Part shown: positions 2,476 to 59,975 of the stretch, in pieces
How the letters are laid out: the number at the start of each line of letters is the position of its first letter
How positions within the stretch are numbered: position 1 is the stretch's first letter
Assembly (NCBI GenBank): GCA_034520885.1
Contig: JAXHNE010000009.1
Coordinates: 2,431-66,430 of the forward strand
Source of the DNA: Candidatus Saccharimonadota bacterium
GTDB lineage: Bacteria; Patescibacteriota; Saccharimonadia; Saccharimonadales; JAXHNE01
Direction of reading: 5' to 3'
DNA: 64,000 nucleotides
The notes under the pieces: model-generated
Told to the model about the DNA's origin: nothing
Databases searched by the model: none
The model's input: the letters and a program-made list of their open reading frames with translations, nothing else
Made by a program: the position numbers and the translations under genes

Positions 2476-3012
2476 TTATTTTACTGTAACCTCCTTGGTA
2501 TCGGAGATGCCTGAGGCAGTTTCTGATGAATATTCTACAGTTGCTGCCCACTTGCCGGGTGTAAGTTTTGACAGAGGAATTTTTATAAAACCACAGGAAA
2601 CATCGGAAACGTTACGCGCTGCCGTACTTGTTGCTTTAACTTCTCTGGATCCACTCTTTAGAGTTAGTTCACAAGTGCCGCCGTCCTCAAATATGCCTGG
2701 GACGCGTGCCGCAAGCTCAAAGTTTGCATCAGATTGGCCCCAAGAAGTAACCTGTGGCTTTACTTGCTTATTGTCGCTTGGTGTAGTTTCGGTTTCTTCG
2801 CTTGGTTTTGGTTGATCAGCTAATTTTTCCTTGTGTTCTTCAGTCTCTTGTAGGTCGGTTTTAGTTGGCGGGTCCAAATCAATACTCTCATCATTAGCCG
2901 TTGTACGATTTTGGTTGGTGTAATGCCAATAAGCAAGGCCGCCGACAAGTACAAGCGGCAGTAAAATGGTAAGTAAACCTATTTTTAGATAATTTTTTTT
3001 TGTTTTCTTCAT
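2476..3012 (-). CDS. small membrane-anchored/secreted hypothetical protein
   Basis: I trimmed the 239-aa track ORF to the internal ATG at 3012 (MKKTKKNYLKIGLLTILLPLVLVGGLAYW = N-terminal anchor). The longer form would overlap the divergent gene starting at 3112. An acidic linker is followed by a beta-rich C-terminus. Confidence 0.6.
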   Translation of the reverse strand: MKKTKKNYLKIGLLTILLPLVLVGGLAYWHYTNQNRTTANDESIDLDPPTKTDLQETEEHKEKLADQPKPSEETETTPSDNKQVKPQVTSWGQSDANFELAARVPGIFEDGGTCELTLKSGSREVKATSTAARNVSDVSCGFIKIPLSKLTPGKWAATVEYSSETASGISDTKEVTVK

Positions 3013-3111
3013 ACGCCTAAATACTAACATAAAATTATCTAAAATGCAAGAGCATTTTAGATAATTTAACCACTGCGGTAAGCAATGTTTATTCATGCTA
3101 TAATTTGCTAA

Positions 3112-4299
3112 ATGCTCAGAGCTGTAAATATTTTCGGCAGTAGAGTCTTTGCCTACCTGAAAAAGACATTTACGGCCAAAAAAATCCGACAACACGCACC
3201 ATTGTTTATTGTACTGGTGGCAGTGTTTACCTCATTTATTTATGGCTGGTACTTTGACGGCTCAAAACCAATGTCAGGCAAAGGTTGGGCCGACCAAACA
3301 TCTTATTATACAGCCGCCGCCAGGTTTTCAGATTTTGAGCTGCCAAGAGCTGGTGAACTACACTATGCGATCGGCTATCCTTTGCTTGGCACAGTAGGTG
3401 GTATTTTTGACAGTGACGACCCGTTCATGGTTGTTAGTCTGGTATTGTTGCTGGCGAGTGTTACGCTTTGTTTTTTGGCAGTCACAAAACTTTTTGGCAA
3501 GAATTGGGCAGTTCTATTCATACTTTTTCTATTTTACTGGGATTTAGTAGGCAGGTCTTTTAGTTTTGCTTCCGAATTATTCGTAGTGCCCTGGAATATC
3601 CAGGTTCTCTTTCTGGCCATGGCTTTTTACTTATGGCTCTTTGCAACTAAAGCGCACCAAAAACCCTCTTGGCGCCTTGTGTTGATAGCTTGCGTACTTT
3701 CAGGATTTGCCATTTTAACGCGGGAAGAAGCGGCACTTTTTGTGTTGCCGGCTATAGCCCTTTTTATACTTATAACAAAAGCCGGAATCAAAAAATTACT
3801 AATTGCAGGCATTATCACTGTCTCGTTTTTCATCCCGCAATTTTTGGTTAAGCTCAATGCTTACGGCTCGATAACGAATTCCGGCCGCAGCGACAGCTAC
3901 TCTGACATAAGATCGCACTACTTACAGCCAGACTTGTTCGAGCGAAACCTGAAAGAAGTTGTTATAAATAGCAGCTACACTACGGGCGCCGAAGCGAGTA
4001 GGCCAGCATTACTTGAAGCTGCCCCGTGGTTGTGGCTTAGCCCGATTGGCTTGGGGCTTATACTCGTACTTAAAAAATATCCGGTAGCTCTAAAAACTTA
4101 CGTCTTGGTAAGCTTGGCACTTGTGGTATTTTACTTAAGCGGTGCCAATATGTCAGCTCAAAAGCTGCGCTTCCATTGCCTGCGTTATATTGCGCCTGGC
4201 ATGATAGTGCTGAACCTAGGGACTCTTGTCGCTGCCAAAGAAACATTTACTTTTACTGCAGAAAAAGTAAAGTCTAAAAACGGTAAATTTCATGCCTAA
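3112..4299 (+). CDS. polytopic membrane protein, GT-C-like glycosyltransferase candidate (PMT/ArnT-like)
   Basis: 395 aa with ~10 predicted hydrophobic helices. It lies in a glycan locus and its stop overlaps the start of the next polytopic protein (ATGCCTAA). Confidence 0.4.
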   Translation: MLRAVNIFGSRVFAYLKKTFTAKKIRQHAPLFIVLVAVFTSFIYGWYFDGSKPMSGKGWADQTSYYTAAARFSDFELPRAGELHYAIGYPLLGTVGGIFDSDDPFMVVSLVLLLASVTLCFLAVTKLFGKNWAVLFILFLFYWDLVGRSFSFASELFVVPWNIQVLFLAMAFYLWLFATKAHQKPSWRLVLIACVLSGFAILTREEAALFVLPAIALFILITKAGIKKLLIAGIITVSFFIPQFLVKLNAYGSITNSGRSDSYSDIRSHYLQPDLFERNLKEVVINSSYTTGAEASRPALLEAAPWLWLSPIGLGLILVLKKYPVALKTYVLVSLALVVFYLSGANMSAQKLRFHCLRYIAPGMIVLNLGTLVAAKETFTFTAEKVKSKNGKFHA

Positions 4300-8215: not shown

Positions 8216-9115
8216 CTAATTGGCGGGTTCTGGTTGCTGCCGTTTAGCTGCGATAGCCAAAGGAACAAGTAATGCCAGAACTGCGAAGTAAGCTAACCTA
8301 TCAATAGTTGCAGCTAAAATAATGTCTTGTGAAGACAAGCCCATTTGGTTCTGTGCTACTAGCAACATTGCTTCTCTGATCCCGATAGCTCCAGGTGTTA
8401 GTGCAACAAGGATTGAAAACTGGGATATACCGGTGTACGTAAGCAGTCCGCCTATCGAGATCTTTGCCCCCACAGCGCTTAGCTCTACACCATATGCTAG
8501 CGTGGAACCGCTTAACTGGAGCAGTGCAATTAAGAACAGACTAATAATAGGTTTTGCTTGAAAAACCACACTAACATTTCTAAGTTTGAGGTATGCGTTT
8601 GCTATGACACGAGGCTTTAATAATCTGAACAAAAATAATGCAAAGGCTAAAGCTCCAACAATTGCTAATATGAACACCAGTACACCAGCGGTACCGCTAA
8701 CTATACCCAAGCCAGATATAATAAGTAGGCCAGCTATTCCAAAAACCATAGCATATTGCATAAAAGTTAGCGCGAAGTATCGCTTGTAAGATATATTGAA
8801 GTACTTTTTCAGGTAAACACCTCTGAAGCCGAGACCACCCTGCAGAAAGCCGAAAAAATTTATCATTGATGAGTAGGCACTAACTCGCACCGCATCTATA
8901 AAAGCTACTTTATTCTTAGTAAAGTTAATGAAAAGAATAAGAAACAGTATATTGGAAAGAAATATCAGTGCCTGCCCAGCCACAACCAGAGATATCTGTG
9001 GTATGGATAAATCTGCAAGTTTTTCAAATTGCTGCTGGTTGTCAAAAAAATAGTAAAAAAAAGCAACCAGAGAGAGAACGAGCAGCAGTATTCGTATTAA
9101 CTTTTTATTTTTCAC
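8216..9115 (-). CDS. flippase-like polytopic membrane protein (LPG-synthase-TM/UPF0104-like)
   Basis: 299 aa with ~8 TM helices. Overlaps the upstream GT2 gene by 11 nt, a common GT2 + flippase-like pairing. Confidence 0.5.
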   Translation of the reverse strand: MKNKKLIRILLLVLSLVAFFYYFFDNQQQFEKLADLSIPQISLVVAGQALIFLSNILFLILFINFTKNKVAFIDAVRVSAYSSMINFFGFLQGGLGFRGVYLKKYFNISYKRYFALTFMQYAMVFGIAGLLIISGLGIVSGTAGVLVFILAIVGALAFALFLFRLLKPRVIANAYLKLRNVSVVFQAKPIISLFLIALLQLSGSTLAYGVELSAVGAKISIGGLLTYTGISQFSILVALTPGAIGIREAMLLVAQNQMGLSSQDIILAATIDRLAYFAVLALLVPLAIAAKRQQPEPAN

Positions 9116-10064
9116 GTTGTGTGTTCTCGAACTGAAGGCGCTTGTTGCGCTCTAAGTTGTTTTCGTTAATGATACGGTTGGTTTTAATCAGATCCGCAAT
9201 GACGCCCAGTACGCAGAACAGTAATCCCGCCGTGAACATGGCGACACCAAGCAGTAGTGATTGAATGTGCTGGCCGGGGTCGGTAGCGCTCACAATCAGG
9301 ATTAAATAGCGTACAAAAGGAATGGCGCTTAAAACCAGCAAAGAAACACCGGGAATGACGAAGACTTTGAGCGGTTCGTGCATAAAGTAACTTTTTAGGA
9401 TGACCCGCATGGATTTATACATGTGCTGGAAGATATTTTTAAACAGGCGTGATTTACGGGTCGGCGGGTTGGTTTTGACCGGTACGGAGGCCAGGGCGAT
9501 ACGGTTCCGCCCGGCATGGATAATGCTTTCCGTGCAGTAGCTGAAGGAGTTTACGATGTTCATTTTGAACGCCGCGTTGCGCGAGTAAGCGCGGAAGCCG
9601 CTGACGGTGTCGGGCACGTTGGTTTTGGCGGCTTTGTTGACTACCCAGCTGCCAAAGCGCTGCATGAGTTTTTTAAACGTGCCGAAATGCTGGATGGCGC
9701 CGGTTTGGCGATCGCCGATGACGATCTCCGCCTCGCCATCAATGACGGGGGTGAGCAATTTAGGGATGTCCGCCTGCGGGTACTGATTGTCGCCATCGGT
9801 GTTGACGATGATGTCCGCGCCGTTGGCTAAGCAGTAGTCCAGGCCGTCCGAAAAGGAGCGGGCCAGGCCACGATTAGTGCGGTGACGTACGAAGTGCTTA
9901 ACCCCGTGTTTTTTGGCGACTTCAACGGTTTTATCGGTGCTGCCGTCGTCGATTATCAGGATTTCTACCGAATCAACGCCCTTGATTTTTTTGGGAATGG
10001 TTTTTAGGACGAGAGGGAGGGTTTCCTCCTCGTTTAGGCACGGAATTTGTACAAACACTTTCAT
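9105..10064 (-). CDS. glycosyltransferase family 2 (polyprenyl-phosphate sugar synthase-like)
   Basis: 319 aa. MKVFVQIPCLNEE..ILIIDDGSTDKT..NTDGDNQY.. (GT-A DxD-type motifs) plus C-terminal TM helices, as in dolichyl/undecaprenyl-phosphate glycosyltransferases. Confidence 0.85.
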   Translation of the reverse strand: MKVFVQIPCLNEEETLPLVLKTIPKKIKGVDSVEILIIDDGSTDKTVEVAKKHGVKHFVRHRTNRGLARSFSDGLDYCLANGADIIVNTDGDNQYPQADIPKLLTPVIDGEAEIVIGDRQTGAIQHFGTFKKLMQRFGSWVVNKAAKTNVPDTVSGFRAYSRNAAFKMNIVNSFSYCTESIIHAGRNRIALASVPVKTNPPTRKSRLFKNIFQHMYKSMRVILKSYFMHEPLKVFVIPGVSLLVLSAIPFVRYLILIVSATDPGQHIQSLLLGVAMFTAGLLFCVLGVIADLIKTNRIINENNLERNKRLQFENTQREK

Positions 10065-10088
10065 AGGCGGGTACCCCTGTGAAAGTCA

Positions 10089-10118
10089 GGAATATGGAAT
10101 ATGGAATATGGAATATGG
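10089..10118. repeat. heptanucleotide tandem array (GGAATAT)4
   Basis: Perfect 4 units at 10089-10116 followed by GG. Lies 25 nt upstream of the GT2 start codon, which is on the minus strand. Confidence 0.95.
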
Positions 10119-10243
10119 GTAAGAACTACCTGCCTAGCTTTGTTTTTTTGTACTGCGCTGCGTCCCGTAGCAGCCTCCGGCTTGCTATCGGGATCCATGT
10201 GCGGAACTCTTGCTTTCATAGGTGGGTACCCCTATGAAAGTCA

Positions 10244-10273
10244 GGAAGATGGAATATGGAATATGGAATATGG
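10244..10273. repeat. heptanucleotide tandem array GGAAGAT(GGAATAT)3
   Basis: Read directly from the sequence. This is the second copy of the duplicated module. Confidence 0.95.
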
Positions 10274-10333
10274 GTAAGAACTACCTGTCTAGCTTTGTTT
10301 TTTTGTGCCGTATTTACGTACATAACTTTATTG

Positions 10334-11680
10334 CTATCTTCCGACTCCGACATAGGTTAAATTATATGCTTCCACGTTTGTTTTATTATAGCAGTTCATG
10401 GCGTCTATGAAGAGATCTCCCTGCATGCGTTTTTTTAATGACGGTAAGTCAATCGTTTTAAGTTCGGGCCAGTCGGTGGTGATGAATACGGCATCGGCGT
10501 TTTCGGTGGCTTTTTCCAGCGAATCACAAATTGCGACTGATTTGCGAAGGTCTTCTTTGGCTTCGCCGTTCGCTCGCGGATCGTACACGCACACCTCCGC
10601 GCCGTCATGATCCAAAATGTTGGCCAGTTTTACGCCTGGAGAGCGCCGCGAGTCGCTGGTTCCCGACTTAAAAGCCAGGCCGAGTACGGCCAATTTTTTG
10701 CCTTGGAGAGTGTCGAGTCGTTCAAGTGCTTTGTTAGCGATGTAGCCGGGCATGGATTCGTTGACGTCGGCCGCGGCGGTCATTATCGGCAAGTCCACGC
10801 CGAATTCCGTCGCGCTGCTGATCAGCCCGCTGACGTCCTTGGGAAAGCACCCGCCACCATAGCCGCGCCCGGCGTTCAAAAACGCCCGGCCAATGCGTGG
10901 ATCGGCGCCGACGGCGTCCATGACTTCCGTGACGTTAGCGCCGGCTTGATCGGCCAGTTTGGCAATGGAATTAGCGAAGGAAATCTTCATCGCCAAAAAA
11001 GCATTGGCGGTAACTTTAATGAGTTCCGCGCTGTTGCGGTTAGTGGCAATGTAGTCCCCGGCTTTTGCCACGAAGGTTATTTTTGCCCGTTTGGCGATCT
11101 CATCCCGCTTGGACTCCAGGGTTTTATACAAGTTTATAACTTCCTCTGCCGCCGGTTTATCCGAACTGCCGGCCACGATGCGGTCAAAACCGAGCGTATC
11201 GGCAATGGCGGTTCCTTCGCGTAAAAATTCCGGGTTGGATACGTAGGATACGTTTTTGCCGGCTCGTTCGAATATCTTTTCCACTGCTTCACCCGTGCCC
11301 ACCGGTACGGTGCTTTTTTGTACGTAAATGGCGCCGTCTTTAATATACTTGGCGGCTTCTTCGGCGGCGGCGTAAACGAAGCTCAAGTTGGAGCTGCCGT
11401 CCGGATTATCCGGCGTGCCGACGCAGGAAAAAATAATATCGCTCCCCGGAATCGCTTGTTCGTAATGGCCAGTGGGGAGCAGTTTTTTGGATTTTATGGC
11501 GTGGGCAATGAGCGGGTCAATGCCGTCCTCGAAAAAGAACGACTTACCGGATTGGATAGTTTTTAAACGACCGGGATTGATTTCTATCAAATGCACGGTG
11601 TGCCCGGCTTCGGCAAAAAGCGTGGCCGTCGTAAGACCGACGTACCCGGCACCAATGACCGAGATGGTTTTAGGCTTCAT
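10334..11680 (-). CDS. ugd: UDP-glucose/GDP-mannose dehydrogenase family protein (probable UDP-glucose 6-dehydrogenase)
   Basis: I trimmed the track ORF to ATG 11680 (MKPKTISVIGAGYVGLTTA = Rossmann motif). Catalytic-Cys motif GGGCFPKDV. ~448 aa. Confidence 0.8.
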   Translation of the reverse strand: MKPKTISVIGAGYVGLTTATLFAEAGHTVHLIEINPGRLKTIQSGKSFFFEDGIDPLIAHAIKSKKLLPTGHYEQAIPGSDIIFSCVGTPDNPDGSSNLSFVYAAAEEAAKYIKDGAIYVQKSTVPVGTGEAVEKIFERAGKNVSYVSNPEFLREGTAIADTLGFDRIVAGSSDKPAAEEVINLYKTLESKRDEIAKRAKITFVAKAGDYIATNRNSAELIKVTANAFLAMKISFANSIAKLADQAGANVTEVMDAVGADPRIGRAFLNAGRGYGGGCFPKDVSGLISSATEFGVDLPIMTAAADVNESMPGYIANKALERLDTLQGKKLAVLGLAFKSGTSDSRRSPGVKLANILDHDGAEVCVYDPRANGEAKEDLRKSVAICDSLEKATENADAVFITTDWPELKTIDLPSLKKRMQGDLFIDAMNCYNKTNVEAYNLTYVGVGR

Positions 11681-11764
11681 CTTTCCCAGTATACAAGGTT
11701 GTTGATTTTGAGTAATGTGCTTTTTACAAGGTAAATATATACAAAACTTTGATACCATTTAGCT

Positions 11765-14620: not shown

Positions 14621-15514
14621 ATGCAGAAACGTATTATTAAAAAGGCGGTGATCGCCGCTGCAGGATTCGGGACGCGGTTTTTGCCGCAAACCAAGGCCAT
14701 GCCCAAGGAAATGCTGCCACTGGTGGACACGCCGATTATCCAATACATTGTGGAGGAGCTGGTGGGCTCCGGTGTGGAAGATATCGTGATTGTCACGGGA
14801 TACCACAAACGTTCCATTGAAGACCATTTTGATCATATGAGTACTGATCTTCGGCAAAATCTAAAACAGGGCGGCAAGCTTGAATTGCTTGAAGAAACAA
14901 AAAAGATTAGTGAGCTAGCTAACTTTGCCTACGTACGCCAGAAAGGCCCGTACGGCAACGCCACGCCACTGATGTGCGCCGAACACTTGCTGGGTGACGA
15001 ACCGTTTTATTACGCCTTTGCCGACGATTTCGTAAAAGCCGATCCCAGCCGGTTCAAACAACTTTTGGAGGTGCACTGGGAACACGGCGGCACGGTGCTA
15101 ACCTGCGTACGGGCGCAAAATGAGCAAGATTACAAACGCTACGGCTTCGTTGCCGGTGAGGAAGTTACTCCAAGCTTGATGCAAGCTAAAAACATCATCG
15201 AAAAACCCGGATCGCGCGAAAAGGCGGGATCTGACTTTGCCACGGTAAGCGGGTACATTATTGATCCGGCGATCTTTCCGTACTTGCACGAGAAAAAGAA
15301 GCACCTAAAAGAAGGTGAAGAGTTCATCATGCAAACCGCCATGCAAGACATGATTGAAGAAGGCCATAAGATCTTCGGTTGCGAAGTGCAAAATGGTACG
15401 TTTTACGATGCGGGTAATAAACTGGATTACATGAAAACCATCGTGGATTTCGCGCTCGCCCGCGAAGATATCGGCGAAGATTTTAAAAACTATCTTAAAG
15501 CCAAGCTACAGTAA
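14621..15514 (+). CDS. galU: UTP--glucose-1-phosphate uridylyltransferase
   Basis: 297 aa. AVIAAAGFGTRFLPQTKAMPKEMLPLVDTPIIQY signature. Confidence 0.9.
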   Translation: MQKRIIKKAVIAAAGFGTRFLPQTKAMPKEMLPLVDTPIIQYIVEELVGSGVEDIVIVTGYHKRSIEDHFDHMSTDLRQNLKQGGKLELLEETKKISELANFAYVRQKGPYGNATPLMCAEHLLGDEPFYYAFADDFVKADPSRFKQLLEVHWEHGGTVLTCVRAQNEQDYKRYGFVAGEEVTPSLMQAKNIIEKPGSREKAGSDFATVSGYIIDPAIFPYLHEKKKHLKEGEEFIMQTAMQDMIEEGHKIFGCEVQNGTFYDAGNKLDYMKTIVDFALAREDIGEDFKNYLKAKLQ

Positions 15515-16900: not shown

Positions 16901-17908
16901 TTAAAGCGTTTTTTGCCAGCGCCAGGCGTCCGCCAGGGCATCATGAAGCGATTTTTCCGACTTCCAGCCCAGTAATTTTTTGGCCTTTTCGGAGCCGGCG
17001 TAGGTGGCGACGATGTCTCCTTCCCGCGGCGGCCCGATTTTGTAAGGAAGTTTTTTGCCGGTAGCTTGCCGGAAGGCCGTGATGACCTCCAGTACGCTGC
17101 TGCCTTTACCGGTGCCGATATTGCACGTTTCGTAAGTGGAACCTTTTTGGCCGTTGGCCCACTTAAGGGCGGCTACGTGGGCTTTGGCCAGGTCGACCAC
17201 ATGGATGTAGTCGCGTATACAGGTGCCGTCCGGGGTCGGGTAGGTGTCTCCGTGTACCGTAAGTTCCGGCCGTATGCCGGCCGCGGTTTGGGTAATGAAC
17301 GGGATTAGGTTCGCCGGCGTGCCAATCGGCAGCTCCCCGATAAGGGCACTGGGGTGGGCGCCAATGGGATTAAAGTATCGCAGGGCGATGGACGTGAGAC
17401 GTTTGCTGGCTTTGGTGGTGTCTTGAAGGATGGTTTCATCCATTTGTTTGGTGGCGCCGTATGGCGAGGTGGCGGGTTTGGTTGGCGCCTCTTCGGTGAC
17501 GGGCAGATCGTCCGGTTCGCCGTAAACCGTGCAGGAGGAAGAAAACACGAAGTTTTTTACGGAGGCTTCTTCCACGGCTTTAAGCAGGGTGATAAGCCCC
17601 GCGACGTTATTTTGGTAATAGTCCAGAGGTTTTTGCACTGATTCGCCGACCGCTTTATGCGCGGCGAAGTGAATAACTCCTTCTACCGCGTGATCTTTCA
17701 GGAGCTTTCTTAAAAACGACTCATCTTGGTAGTCGTTTTCATAGGAGGTAATATCTGAACCGGTAATTTCATTTAAGCGGTCAATGACCTGCCGATCGGA
17801 GTTTGAAAAGTTATCTACGATTATTGGCCGGTAGCCGGCGTTGACCAGTTCCACGACCGTATGCGAACCAATGAACCCGGCGCCTCCGGTAACCAAGATG
17901 TTCTTCAT
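16901..17908 (-). CDS. galE: UDP-glucose 4-epimerase
   Basis: 335 aa. VTGGAGFIGSH NAD motif and YGATK catalytic motif (SPYGATKQM). Confidence 0.9.
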   Translation of the reverse strand: MKNILVTGGAGFIGSHTVVELVNAGYRPIIVDNFSNSDRQVIDRLNEITGSDITSYENDYQDESFLRKLLKDHAVEGVIHFAAHKAVGESVQKPLDYYQNNVAGLITLLKAVEEASVKNFVFSSSCTVYGEPDDLPVTEEAPTKPATSPYGATKQMDETILQDTTKASKRLTSIALRYFNPIGAHPSALIGELPIGTPANLIPFITQTAAGIRPELTVHGDTYPTPDGTCIRDYIHVVDLAKAHVAALKWANGQKGSTYETCNIGTGKGSSVLEVITAFRQATGKKLPYKIGPPREGDIVATYAGSEKAKKLLGWKSEKSLHDALADAWRWQKTL

Positions 17909-19092
17909 TTTTTGCCCTTTGAACCAATTCGTTTTAGGTGGGCTTTTATGGCTTGGCGGAAATGTTTTTGGTCAAATTGCCGGGCGGTTTTGGATATGGC
18001 GCCCGGGTCAAAGGAGTGGTCGGGAAATTGTCGCAATACCCGTACGAGCGAGTCGACGGTTTGTTCCTTGAAAAACGTACCGGTTTTGCCCTCGATCACG
18101 TAATCCAGGGCGCCGCCGGCTTGGTAGGCGATTACCGGGGTGCCGGAGGCCATGGCTTCTACCGGCGCGATCCCGAAATCTTCCAGGCTGGCGAAAATAA
18201 AGGCTTTGGCGGACGCCAGAGATTCTTCAATTTCTTGGTTGGTGGCGTTGTCGTTAAAGGTGATCGTATCGCCGGCAATGCGTTTTAAGTTGCCCAGTTC
18301 CGGGCCGTAGCCAATGACGGTGAGGGGGAGTTTTAACTGATTACAGGCTTGGATGATGAGGTCGGTGCGTTTGTTGGGGACGAGACGCCCCACAGTCACG
18401 AAGCCACGCTTCTTGGAAGATGGAATATGGAAGGTGGAATTTGAGAAGCGGGAGGTGTCTACCGGGGGGTGGATGACGGTTGAGTCGCGACCGTAGTATT
18501 TTTTGATGTCACTTTGAATGTGCGTGGAGTTGGCGATAAAATAATCAACCTTTTGCGCCGCTTGGTAGTCACGTTCGCGCAATGGTTTTACCAGTAACTT
18601 GAGCCCGATCCGGACGAGCCATTTCGGCCGAAAGCCGGGATTTTTAAGGTAGTTGTCGTAGTGCCGCCAGTAGAAGTGGACCGGGGAATGGCAATAACAT
18701 ACATGCAACGGGCGTTGCATGTTGGAAGATGGAAGTTGGAAGTTGGAAGATGGCGAAACGAATTTGGCTTCTCCGTTACCGCTGGAGCTGATTATCAGAT
18801 CGTAGTCACTTAAATCCAGCTTTTTGAACCAACGTTGCCGGAGTAATGGTAAAAACTTCCGAAGCCGGGAGAACGGCCACTTTTGCAAGTATCCGGTTAC
18901 TACTTTGCCATCTAATTTATCGCGCCACTCATCACTGCAGTAAGAGGTGTAAATCGGCGCTTCCGGAAACATTTTATGGAGTTCCAAAACAACCTGTTCA
19001 GCACCGCCTCCCAAAAGCCAATCGTGGGCTATCGCAACCTTCAGGTTGCGCGTGGAAGGTGGAAGGTGGAAGGTGGAAGGTGGTTGTTTCAT
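17905..19092 (-). CDS. glycosyltransferase family 4 carrying three in-frame heptamer-array insertions
   Basis: 395 aa. Core ..KVAIAHDWLLGGGAEQV.., ..LHVCYCHSP.. and ..EDFGIAPVEAMASGTPVIA... Repeat-encoded segments are MKQPPSTFHLPPSTRN (N-terminus), SPSSNFQLPSSNMQ and NSTFHIPSSKK. The start overlaps the stop of the upstream gene (ATGA). Confidence 0.85.
   Translation of the reverse strand: MKQPPSTFHLPPSTRNLKVAIAHDWLLGGGAEQVVLELHKMFPEAPIYTSYCSDEWRDKLDGKVVTGYLQKWPFSRLRKFLPLLRQRWFKKLDLSDYDLIISSSGNGEAKFVSPSSNFQLPSSNMQRPLHVCYCHSPVHFYWRHYDNYLKNPGFRPKWLVRIGLKLLVKPLRERDYQAAQKVDYFIANSTHIQSDIKKYYGRDSTVIHPPVDTSRFSNSTFHIPSSKKRGFVTVGRLVPNKRTDLIIQACNQLKLPLTVIGYGPELGNLKRIAGDTITFNDNATNQEIEESLASAKAFIFASLEDFGIAPVEAMASGTPVIAYQAGGALDYVIEGKTGTFFKEQTVDSLVRVLRQFPDHSFDPGAISKTARQFDQKHFRQAIKAHLKRIGSKGKK
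18400..18448. repeat. hairpin (GAAGC-CAC-GCTTC) + degenerate heptamer array TGGAAGA TGGAATA TGGAAGG TGGAATT TGAGAAG
   Basis: Read directly from the sequence. Lies inside the GT4 CDS, in frame. Confidence 0.8.
18703..18753. repeat. hairpin (ATGCAACG-GG-CGTTGCAT) + heptamer array TGGAAGA TGGAAGT TGGAAGT TGGAAGA TGG
   Basis: Read directly from the sequence. Lies inside the GT4 CDS, in frame. Confidence 0.9.
19033..19083. repeat. hairpin (CGCAACCT-TC-AGGTTGCG) + perfect heptamer array (TGGAAGG)4 TGG
   Basis: Read directly from the sequence. The array occupies codons 4-13 of the GT4 gene, starting 9 nt after its ATG. Confidence 0.95.
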
Positions 19093-19448
19093 CGAAGTGG
19101 TCTCATGAATGCGTTTAGTAATTTTTGAACCGAAACACTTTCTTTAAGCAACTCACTCAATTCATCATCGTTGACGTAGTCAAGCCTATTAGCTAAATAC
19201 AAAAAGTTCTTTGTCTCAAGTGCTGAGCCGTACGCTATGACGAAAAAGTGTAGCTTGTCTTTCTTTGTTTGCCTTCCGAAGCCCTCCGAAATATTCGCGG
19301 AGATTGATGAAACTGAACGCCTGATCTGTGAAGTTAACCCGAAACGCTCCTCAGAAGGAAATTTTTTCGTTACTCTATAGACGCTTACGGCCCAATCCTG
19401 CGCTTTTCGCCAAACTTCAAGATCTTCGAATGATTCAATTCGTGCCAT
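19089..19448 (-). CDS. four-helix-bundle protein (23S rRNA intervening-sequence protein / Avd family)
   Basis: 119 aa. MARIESFEDLEVWRKAQDWAV...QIRRSVSSISANISEGFGR...ALETKNFLYLA matches the family known as PF05635/TIGR02436. Confidence 0.85.
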   Translation of the reverse strand: MARIESFEDLEVWRKAQDWAVSVYRVTKKFPSEERFGLTSQIRRSVSSISANISEGFGRQTKKDKLHFFVIAYGSALETKNFLYLANRLDYVNDDELSELLKESVSVQKLLNAFMRPLR

Positions 19449-19491
19449 ATTCCACCTTCCATATTCTACCCTCCGTGATGCTTCGCATCAC
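19447..19491. repeat. inverted-orientation heptamer array + hairpin (GTGATGC-TTC-GCATCAC)
   Basis: On the minus strand this reads GTGATGC GAA GCATCAC GGAGGGT AGAATAT GGAAGGT GGAATAT G. It contains the RBS-like GGAGG/AAGGTGG and the ATG of the four-helix-bundle gene. The outer hairpin arm contains the TGA stop of the upstream sugar transferase. Confidence 0.85.
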
Positions 19492-38248: not shown

Positions 38249-38290
38249 AATAATACTAGAATTAATACTAGTATTAATTCTAGTATTATT
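38249..38290. repeat. 42-bp perfect AT-rich palindrome
   Basis: AATAATACTAGAATTAATACTAGTATTAATTCTAGTATTATT is its own reverse complement, centred on ACTAGT. It overlaps the stop codon (38286-38288) of the minus-strand gene. Confidence 0.95.
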
Positions 38291-59828: not shown

Positions 59829-59845
59829 TGCGAAACTCCTCTCAC

Positions 59846-59975
59846 ATAAATCTGAAATCTGAATACAGAAACTAGAAACAAATCTGAAACCCAAAACCTA
59901 AAACTCAAAATGTTTCTAATTTGATGTTTGTAATTTCTAGTTTGTTTACTATTTCGTGCTTCGTATTTCATGTTT
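59846..59975. repeat. AT-rich region with 7-nt periodicity: A-rich heptamer run followed by its T-rich inverted counterpart
   Basis: AAATCTG AAATCTG AATACAG AAACTAG AAACAAA TCTGAAA CCCAAAA CCTAAAA CTCAAAA TG, then TTTCTAA TTTGATG TTTGTAA TTTCTAG TTTGTTT ACTATTT CGTGCTT CGTATTT CATGTTT. Confidence 0.75.

Follow-up and report, generated by a model that had tools for sequence, protein, structure and literature searches.

Organization of the ugd–GT2 junction

The stretch of DNA analysed here, referred to as the window, comprises 64,000 nt of contig JAXHNE010000009.1 from a Candidatus Saccharimonadota bacterium. Our subject is a 270-nt spacer, read on the minus strand, that separates a gene for a UDP-glucose/nucleotide-sugar dehydrogenase (ugd, 10334..11758) from a gene for a polyprenyl-phosphate glycosyltransferase-like protein (GT2, 9105..10064) and that contains two copies of a module built around a heptamer array and a hairpin (coordinates joined by two dots denote minus-strand features throughout). 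The ugd gene was identified by Pfam and NCBIfam matches and by the C-termini of its relatives, and GT2 by Pfam/NCBIfam matches and by its native start, ATGAAAGTGTTTGT, which is kept in relatives. The family matches of GT2 are AglJ/PpgS/ArnC-like, every one of them under the equivalog cut-off, and its protein is identical to one annotated in a Candidatus Saccharibacteria metagenome-assembled genome. Downstream, a gene for an MprF-flippase-domain-like membrane protein (8216..9115), recognized by its PF03706 domain match, overlaps the GT2 stop by 11 nt. An earlier reading of this DNA from its letters and open reading frames (ORFs), hereafter the original prediction, had placed a glycosyltransferase/flippase pair after ugd, and the Pfam/NCBIfam matches make those labels reasonable.

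Starting from the ugd stop, the spacer consists of a unique 27-nt segment A (10307..10333), which carries the ATG at 10323 of a first upstream ORF (uORF1); module copy M1 (10213..10306); a unique, GC-rich segment B of 61 nt (10152..10212) that resembles nothing retrieved; and module copy M2 (10058..10151), which adjoins GT2. The two modules (10058-10151 and 10213-10306) form a direct repeat of 94 nt that is 96% identical, with 4 mismatches and a spacing of 155 nt, just as had been predicted. We considered a simple 155-nt tandem duplication and rejected it, since the repeat covers just 94 of the 155 nt, and segments A and B and the GT2 body are unrelated.

M1 is made up of an A-rich lead, a mini-hairpin (GGTAGTTCTTACC), a heptamer array and a 10-bp hairpin ending in ATGAAAG. 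The M1 array (10244..10273) reads, in the sense orientation, three units of CCATATT and one variant unit, CCATCTT, and the M2 array (10089..10118) is a perfect run of 4.3 CCATATT units; the predicted (CCATATT)4 tracts are therefore present at 4.3 units in each module, but one of them carries the variant unit. The M1 hairpin (CTTTCATAGG-N8-CCTATGAAAG; 10213..10240), with perfect 10-bp arms at 10213-10222 and 10231-10240 and a folding energy of −13.6 kcal/mol, encloses the ATG of a second upstream ORF (uORF2). The M2 hairpin (10057..10086), with arms at 10057-10067 and 10076-10086, one C·A mismatch and −9.5 kcal/mol, encloses the GT2 ATG and has an AGGGG motif resembling a Shine-Dalgarno (SD) sequence at its arm/loop border. 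Both hairpins follow the pattern CTTTCAYAGG-N8-CCTATGAAAG with the module ATG in the 3′ arm, and the 36-nt stretches that hold them are among the most stable 0.2% (M1) and 3% (M2) of sampled windows; arm mapping and folding thus bear out the claim that both start codons lie within 10-bp hairpins. The arrays of both modules contain no G and were unpaired with nearby sequence in folding. Rfam returned zero matches at E ≤ 10 for positions 9950-10450.

Comparison with related loci

The spacer was found in 0 of 24 Saccharibacteria GT2 loci. At three loci whose GT2 is 83% identical to that of the window, the ugd stop overlaps the GT2 start directly (ATGA or TAATG), and in the relative at 90% identity, a PMT_2 gene in opposite orientation lies between ugd and GT2. 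Across the 24 loci, GT2 either begins 0-19 nt after ugd or has a TATAAT-like box 6-12 nt before its ATG, which implies leaderless transcripts. This box (TATAAT/TATACT, looked for in the 70 nt before the GT2 start) lies 6-12 nt before the ATG in L003, L014, L015, L019, L022, L026, L029, L037, L044, L049, L056 and L068 (L numbers denote comparison loci); no TATAAT box occurs near the GT2 ATG of the window.

In relatives GT2 begins with ATGAAAGT(T/G)TTTGT, which identifies the ATGAAAG at the module ends as a copy of the GT2 start. The end of each module thus duplicates the first seven bases of GT2 itself, and for that reason each module supplies both an ATG and a TGA in the +1 frame. Because the C-terminus of ugd, ...YVGVGR*, is the same as in relatives, the insertion must have occurred exactly at the junction. 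As judged from these comparisons, the 270-nt spacer is a lineage-specific insertion at an ancestral stop-to-start junction.

When the spacer was compared by BLAST with 1.5 Mb of related loci, matches were limited to the heptamers and the GT2 start, and the module pattern with a variable heptamer gap had no match in JGI metagenomes. Hidden Markov model (HMM) and BLAST searches of the spacer for a decayed copy of the four-helix-bundle gene described below were negative.

The GT2 search of genome contigs gave, among the matches listed, relatives that are 55-63% identical, and closer relatives were fetched singly. Among those matches, orthologues at this level of identity occur in many Actinomycetota, including Curtobacterium, Agromyces, Cellulomonas, Actinomyces and Schaalia (loci L007, L009-L013, L016-L018 and many more of L020-L081). 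Actinomycetota are the usual hosts of Saccharibacteria, and exchange of the GT2 gene between host and epibiont is possible.

Upstream ORFs and translation into GT2

ORF translation confirmed that ORFs of 35 and 52 codons, joined by ATGA, lead from ugd into GT2. uORF1 (10216..10323; 35 codons) encodes MYVNTAQKNKARQVVLTHIPYSIFHLPDFHRGTHL* and starts 11 nt past the ugd stop; the same frame continues upstream without a stop as far as an ATG at 10353, within ugd, from which it would give 45 amino acids. Its TGA overlaps the ATG at 10219, where uORF2 (10061..10219; 52 codons) starts from the duplicated GT2 start codon, and the uORF2 TGA (10063-10061) overlaps the GT2 ATG at 10064. The stop/start overlaps accordingly occupy 10219-10216 and 10064-10061. 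Of the three sense frames of the module, only the frame ending in this TGA is open. A scan of the spacer detected neither a promoter-like nor a terminator-like site.

We estimated how often such an arrangement arises by chance by holding the modules fixed and replacing segments A and B with random sequence of similar length. A uORF1 with an ATG appeared in 9% of trials and the exact uORF2 relay in 12%, and both were present in about 1%. The four differences between M1 and M2 are, in the uORF frame, two synonymous and two non-synonymous, and the uORF2 peptide had no relative among 5.8 billion proteins and no record in an exact look-up. The balance of substitutions and the missing uORF2 homologue argue that the peptides are not the point of the uORFs, and the encoded peptides do not appear to be functional. 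The uORF frames and ATGA overlaps, whose conservation in relatives the original prediction had proposed to check, are not conserved; the relatives have the direct ugd/GT2 overlap instead.

The explanation that we favour, with moderate confidence, is that an array-hairpin repeat was inserted between ugd and GT2, that GT2 is coupled through two ORFs that are by-products of this insertion, and that no fast repeat switch is involved. GT2 would be co-transcribed with ugd, ribosomes ending ugd would reinitiate 11 nt downstream, and they would then translate through both short ORFs, opening the hairpins on the way and starting again at each ATGA with the aid of AGGGG. In this way the relay would stand in for the lost ugd/GT2 overlap. 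The relay into GT2 that had been predicted is thus plausible, given the ancestral overlap and its frequency of about 1% in the simulation; against the predicted relay stand the lack of uORF conservation and a strong SD motif that could allow an independent start. The ancestral ugd/GT2 overlap, together with the many overlapping genes in the window, where such overlaps are frequent, argues for retention of the relay, which has probably been kept by selection because ribosomes thereby keep flowing into GT2.

Several points weigh against this explanation. The figure of about 1% is post hoc, depends on the null model and applies to a uORF1 that starts with ATG only. Translation of the uORFs is itself inferred from sequence. 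The non-heptamer part of the module is present in two copies only, counting the window, 1.5 Mb of related loci and the JGI metagenomes. The stability of heptamer arrays between strains, described below, concerns arrays other than those of this locus. Finally, the strong AGGGG and the unstructured array upstream could permit independent GT2 initiation, in which case the relay would be unnecessary.

This last point amounts to a different explanation, namely that GT2 starts on its own, the uORFs are incidental, and the G-free array is an unstructured standby site beside a hairpin that carries AGGGG and ATG. We regard it as a real possibility, if a somewhat unlikely one. The original prediction had described the SD at the module start codons as weak; in fact, the AGGGG found 9 nt ahead of each module ATG pairs with the anti-SD at −6.5 kcal/mol, which places it among the strongest 13% of 54 window genes, and a clear SD is found in only about 30% of window genes. 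Independent initiation would also be favoured by the hairpin that adjoins GT2, the weaker of the two copies with its one mismatch, and by arrays that lack G and remain unpaired nearby. The strand opposite the spacer also holds ORFs of 52-62 amino acids, comparable in length to the uORFs, so that open frames are cheap in this spacer. In addition, the same arrays occur 2-4 codons after the start codon in a GT4 glycosyltransferase gene, discussed below, and in a LexA-like gene, and CA-rich downstream sequences reportedly enhance translation (work ascribed to Martin-Farmer and Janssen, 1999). On the other hand, the exact two-step relay is improbable by chance, at about 1%, the stop of ugd and the start of GT2 overlapped ancestrally, and the SD motif lies partly within the stem.

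Heptamer arrays elsewhere in the window and in other genomes

The heptamer tract motif, searched with at most 3 mismatches, gave 12 matches in the window as compared with 0.5 expected, and six arrays of the GGAAnnT/CCAnnTT type are present: the pair in the spacer, three at 18414, 18723 and 19052, and one, inverted, at 19445. The three at 19052-19083, 18723-18753 and 18414-18440 lie in frame within the GT4 glycosyltransferase gene (17905..19092) and make up 3 of the 5 further places in the window that have arrays of about 4 units. A hairpin follows each of the first two of these arrays (−11.3 and −12.5 kcal/mol), and the fold after the third is within background.

Alignment of GT4 homologues revealed three insertion hot spots, one at the N-terminus, one following GNGEAKF and one following PPVDxxRF. 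At the three sites, short GT4 orthologues of 358-360 amino acids have nothing, and other homologues carry heptamer-derived peptides of a few recurrent families, PSTFHLP from CCACCTT, SNIKYQIS from AATATCA and TTNYQLP from CCAACTA, which form a presence/absence mosaic across species, at times with two families in one protein. We relied on these insertion peptides instead of the 7-amino-acid periodicity of GT4 homologues, whose signal was too weak (4 of 120 positive). At the DNA level, five further genomes have arrays of 3.7-4.7 units at the GT4 sites, within an RmlD-like gene and in intergenic positions, and units recur across species. Period-7 arrays numbered 41 in 797 kb of GT4-centred loci, compared with 9-11 arrays for periods 6, 8 and 9; 700 kb of GT2-centred loci yielded only 5 period-7 arrays, of low complexity. 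Taken as a set, these arrays suggest that the ugd–GT2 modules are one instance of a class of "heptamer array plus hairpin" elements, resembling the short tandemly repeated repetitive (STRR) sequences of cyanobacteria, in envelope-polysaccharide loci of some Saccharibacteria.

Other arrangements of period 7 were also encountered. An intergenic patch in the window (59840-59940), composed of AAATCTG, AAACCCA and ATGTTTC/GAAACAT and partly inverted, lies upstream of a small minus-strand ORF. In GC-rich unrelated bacteria, intergenic hairpins by GT4 homologues have both arms made of heptamer repeats, with up to 11 units (L132 565-656, 4439-4540 and 6239-6405; L155 9405-9462 and 11654-11699; L127 941-1002), indicating that STRR-like hairpins also exist outside cyanobacteria and Saccharibacteria. 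L088 contains a dispersed repeat of about 140 nt, at 3006-3147, 14643-14779 and 14848-14995, whose copies are 95-99% identical and which coincides with the ends of the region that L088 has in common with a second metagenome-assembled genome (MAG), L089.

Hairpins following the arrays

In the sense orientation, G-poor arrays tend to have a hairpin within 0-4 nt downstream. The 36 nt downstream of the array were more stable than about 95% of windows from the same locus in 9 of 17 arrays, and the combined Fisher p value was 3.6e-8 on the downstream (3′) side versus 0.58 on the upstream (5′) side. The 3′ arm of the hairpin consists of native bases (those of the GT2 start, or of the GT4 codons for KVA, PLHV and GF), and the 5′ arm is its complement. 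Arms vary by site and by species, also between species at one and the same site, as with CGCAACC/GGTTGCG compared with GGGCAACC/GGTTGCCC and AATCGCCA/TGGCGATT, or, in a second set, ATGCAAC/GTTGCAT compared with TAATATGAAGC/GCTTCATATTA and GGACGC/GCGTCC. Since array-linked hairpins occur across the class, in coding sequence as well, the hairpin at the GT2 start is a generic hallmark of these elements and not a special property of the leader. Either the insertion copies its flank in inverted form or the pairing was selected afterwards.

A four-helix-bundle cassette between Bac_transf and GT4

Between the Bac_transf gene and GT4, the window holds a gene (19089..19448) for a four-helix-bundle protein of the family named "23S rRNA IVS protein" (IVS, intervening sequence; PF05635/TIGR02436; PF05635 E = 2e-38), and its stop overlaps the GT4 start (ATGA). 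Upstream of it is a purine-type heptamer array (GGTAGAATATGGAAGGTGGAATATGG; 19445..19491), ahead of which a conserved hairpin (19475-19491) covers the Bac_transf stop; this array is the reverse complement of the spacer arrays at 20 of 22 bases. The order within the cassette is therefore conserved hairpin, purine-type array, four-helix-bundle gene, ATGA overlap and a pyrimidine-type array that forms the N-terminal extension of GT4. The cassette with both array types was found in 6/6 cases, covering all array-bearing genomes examined and including a second site in L174 (window 19089-19491; L088 9590-10040; L090 9590-10040; L091 9600-10052; L172 9575-10038; L174 7173-7659). In L175, which has the same gene order and an insertion-free GT4, Bac_transf overlaps GT4 directly, and neither a four-helix-bundle gene nor a period-7 array was found in 21 kb. 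As relatives show direct overlaps at these positions, the spacer and the cassette both occupy formerly overlapping stop/start junctions, and each keeps a chain of ORFs linked by ATGA.

The two flanks of the cassette in the window can form a duplex of −42.8 kcal/mol, compared with a shuffled mean of −26 (sd 3.2; z about −5). The same complementarity was moderate against shuffles in L091 and did not exceed them in L088 or L090. An HMM search of the other 80 metagenome loci found no four-helix-bundle gene next to heptamer arrays, and the association is therefore not general outside Saccharibacteria.

A broader proposal, which we consider unlikely, is that Saccharibacteria carry a hitherto undescribed repeat system, with G-free arrays of about 30 nt placed at gene starts, stop/start junctions and permissive loops, each accompanied by an inverted copy of the next 6-11 nt (the signature of fold-back or template switching, or a selected hairpin), and functionally tied to a conserved Avd-like four-helix-bundle gene bracketed by complementary arrays. 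The ugd–GT2 modules and their relay would then be a product of active templated insertion or RNA processing on envelope-polysaccharide operons.

Decidedly unlikely, in our judgement, is the proposal that the modules are functional cis-elements tied to the Avd-like protein, through protein binding or through pairing with the purine-type leader array, and that they coordinate the expression of envelope-sugar genes or the processing of their RNA, with the spacer as a regulatory site and not debris. The consistent bracketing of the gene, with purine-type units before it and pyrimidine-type units after it, would fit this proposal, as would the 20/22 complementarity between the spacer arrays and the array before the gene, the genome that has the same gene order and lacks both gene and arrays, and the persistence of array-side hairpins across species with different, compensating arms. 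However, flank complementarity is clear only in the window, heptamer hairpins occur in other bacteria without such a gene nearby, and the sampling is sparse and built around a single gene family. PF05635-type proteins are also not known to have a biochemical function outside diversity-generating retroelements.

Repeat number and the question of a switch

The original prediction had proposed that a change of one unit in either array would move the uORF stop away from the next ATG and so switch GT2 expression. Simulated unit changes agreed with the frame arithmetic: with one unit more, the uORF would end 24 nt short of the next ATG, and with one unit less it would overrun that ATG by 32 or 89 nt. 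The switch itself was not supported. Although M1 and M2 have diverged by 4 substitutions, their unit number is the same. Between the strains of loci L172 and L173, 8,184 nt contain 27 substitutions (0.33%) and 0 indels, and four arrays, one of them perfect, are identical in both. All of the first 13 arrays assessed in Saccharibacteria loci have 3.7-4.7 units, and one intergenic array has 6.1; the ugd–GT2 tracts, at about 4 units with one imperfect, lack a long perfect run.

We therefore think it very improbable that relay throughput is switched by slippage in (CCATATT)4 to give phase-variable expression of GT2 and the flippase. The idea draws on the frame arithmetic, on a unit length that is not a multiple of 3 and on the fact that surface glycan genes are a typical target of phase variation. 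It is countered by the short tracts, one of them already imperfect, by the equal unit numbers in M1 and M2 and the identical arrays in strains 0.33% apart, by the clustering of array lengths around 4 units, unlike the broad spectrum of contingency loci, and by the presence of the same arrays in frame within apparently intact GT4 genes of many species. As far as these comparisons reach, the heptamer arrays look like stable sequence and not a fast on/off switch.

It is hardly credible that the tandem module is an artefact of MAG assembly, since the copies differ at 4 positions and enclose 61 nt of unique sequence, unlike a collapsed or looped repeat; the break of an independent Logan assembly inside the GT2-proximal array, which marks the region as hard to assemble, is also expected from a true repeat longer than the k-mer. 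The assembly concerned (L001; SRR26473340) comes from the same organism, with 1 mismatch in 4 kb, and ends inside the M2 array, its position 1 corresponding to window position 10109. The duplicated module breaks short-read assemblies.

Other features of the window

The ugd ORF has 474 amino acids, its domains begin at residue 31 and relatives have about 450 amino acids; the real ugd start is probably about 25 codons downstream of the ATG at 11758. A search of the whole window with Rfam at the gathering score returned a single tRNA and no rRNA, and a Pfam scan of 40 window proteins revealed no reverse transcriptase or transposase that could act as a mobilising enzyme. At 38251-38288 there are 3.2 tandem copies of a 12-nt unit, TAATACTAGTAT.

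Discussion

At the locus described here, a repeat insertion appears to have split a coupled gene pair, and the coupling probably persists by way of two accidental ORFs. Beyond this locus, the arrays are tolerated in frame within conserved glycosyltransferases and co-occur with a four-helix-bundle gene, and the combination offers a handle on the function of heptamer repeats as well as on the role of the "23S rRNA IVS protein" family. There are practical consequences too: in annotation, N-terminal extensions and loop insertions derived from arrays are to be expected, and in assembly, contig breaks at the same places.

Comparison with five known systems helps to place the arrays. STRR sequences are known from heterocystous cyanobacteria, where CCCCAGT is one example of a unit. 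In Nostoc, Elhai et al. (2008) reportedly found small hairpin elements embedded in the heptamer arrays. Cyanobacterial STRR heptamers lie between operon genes (hupS-hupL) and in the hoxW promoter region and can form hairpins; roles in transcript stability or translational coupling have been proposed, and their function is not known (PMC2670836). By analogy, the STRR repeat is the closest known counterpart of the elements described here: both consist of short tandem 7-bp arrays, with several arrays per genome and few unit families. They differ in host, which here is Saccharibacteria/Patescibacteria, and in units, which here are CCAnnTT, TCAAATA and CCAACTA. Furthermore, the Saccharibacteria arrays are also found in frame in coding genes, have a one-sided hairpin formed on native downstream sequence and are linked to a four-helix-bundle gene. 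STRR arrays lie between genes and are often inverted pairs that can fold into a hairpin; the four-helix-bundle cassette and the patch at 59840-59940 show this arrangement, the two spacer arrays are direct and not inverted, and many arrays are intragenic. A search of the full-text literature found no paper on heptanucleotide or tandem repeats in Saccharibacteria. The comparison suggests that STRR-like heptamer arrays extend beyond cyanobacteria, into the reduced genomes of Saccharibacteria.

Simple sequence repeat (SSR) contingency loci, such as the 7-bp repeats upstream of the hmw adhesin genes of Haemophilus influenzae, have long, perfect and highly polymorphic tracts. The arrays described here resemble them in a unit that is not a multiple of 3, in a position in or before genes for surface structures and in that a unit change would alter expression; they differ in that the tracts have about 4 units, are often imperfect and show no length change where this could be tested. 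Termination-reinitiation coupling has in common with the ugd–GT2 junction the ATGA overlaps, present here at both steps, and a downstream start buried in structure, but the intermediates here are two non-conserved ORFs that arose from a repeat insertion, and the two-step relay is a prediction.

Two further systems bear on the in-frame arrays and on the cassette; each of them, like the SSR contingency loci, has defining features that are lacking here. Rickettsia palindromic elements (RPE), reportedly described by Ogata et al. in 2000, are said to be conserved palindromes of 100-150 bp found in frame in protein genes. Like them, the heptamer arrays are dispersed repeats tolerated in frame at surface loops or termini, with a presence/absence mosaic among orthologues; unlike them, the element here is a heptamer array of 28-32 nt with a site-specific hairpin. 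With the 23S rRNA IVS, the cassette shares a PF05635 ORF bracketed by complementary flanks that are able to form a long stem. It differs in lying between Bac_transf and GT4 of a polysaccharide operon, and not in a 23S rRNA helix, and in having stems composed of heptamer arrays.

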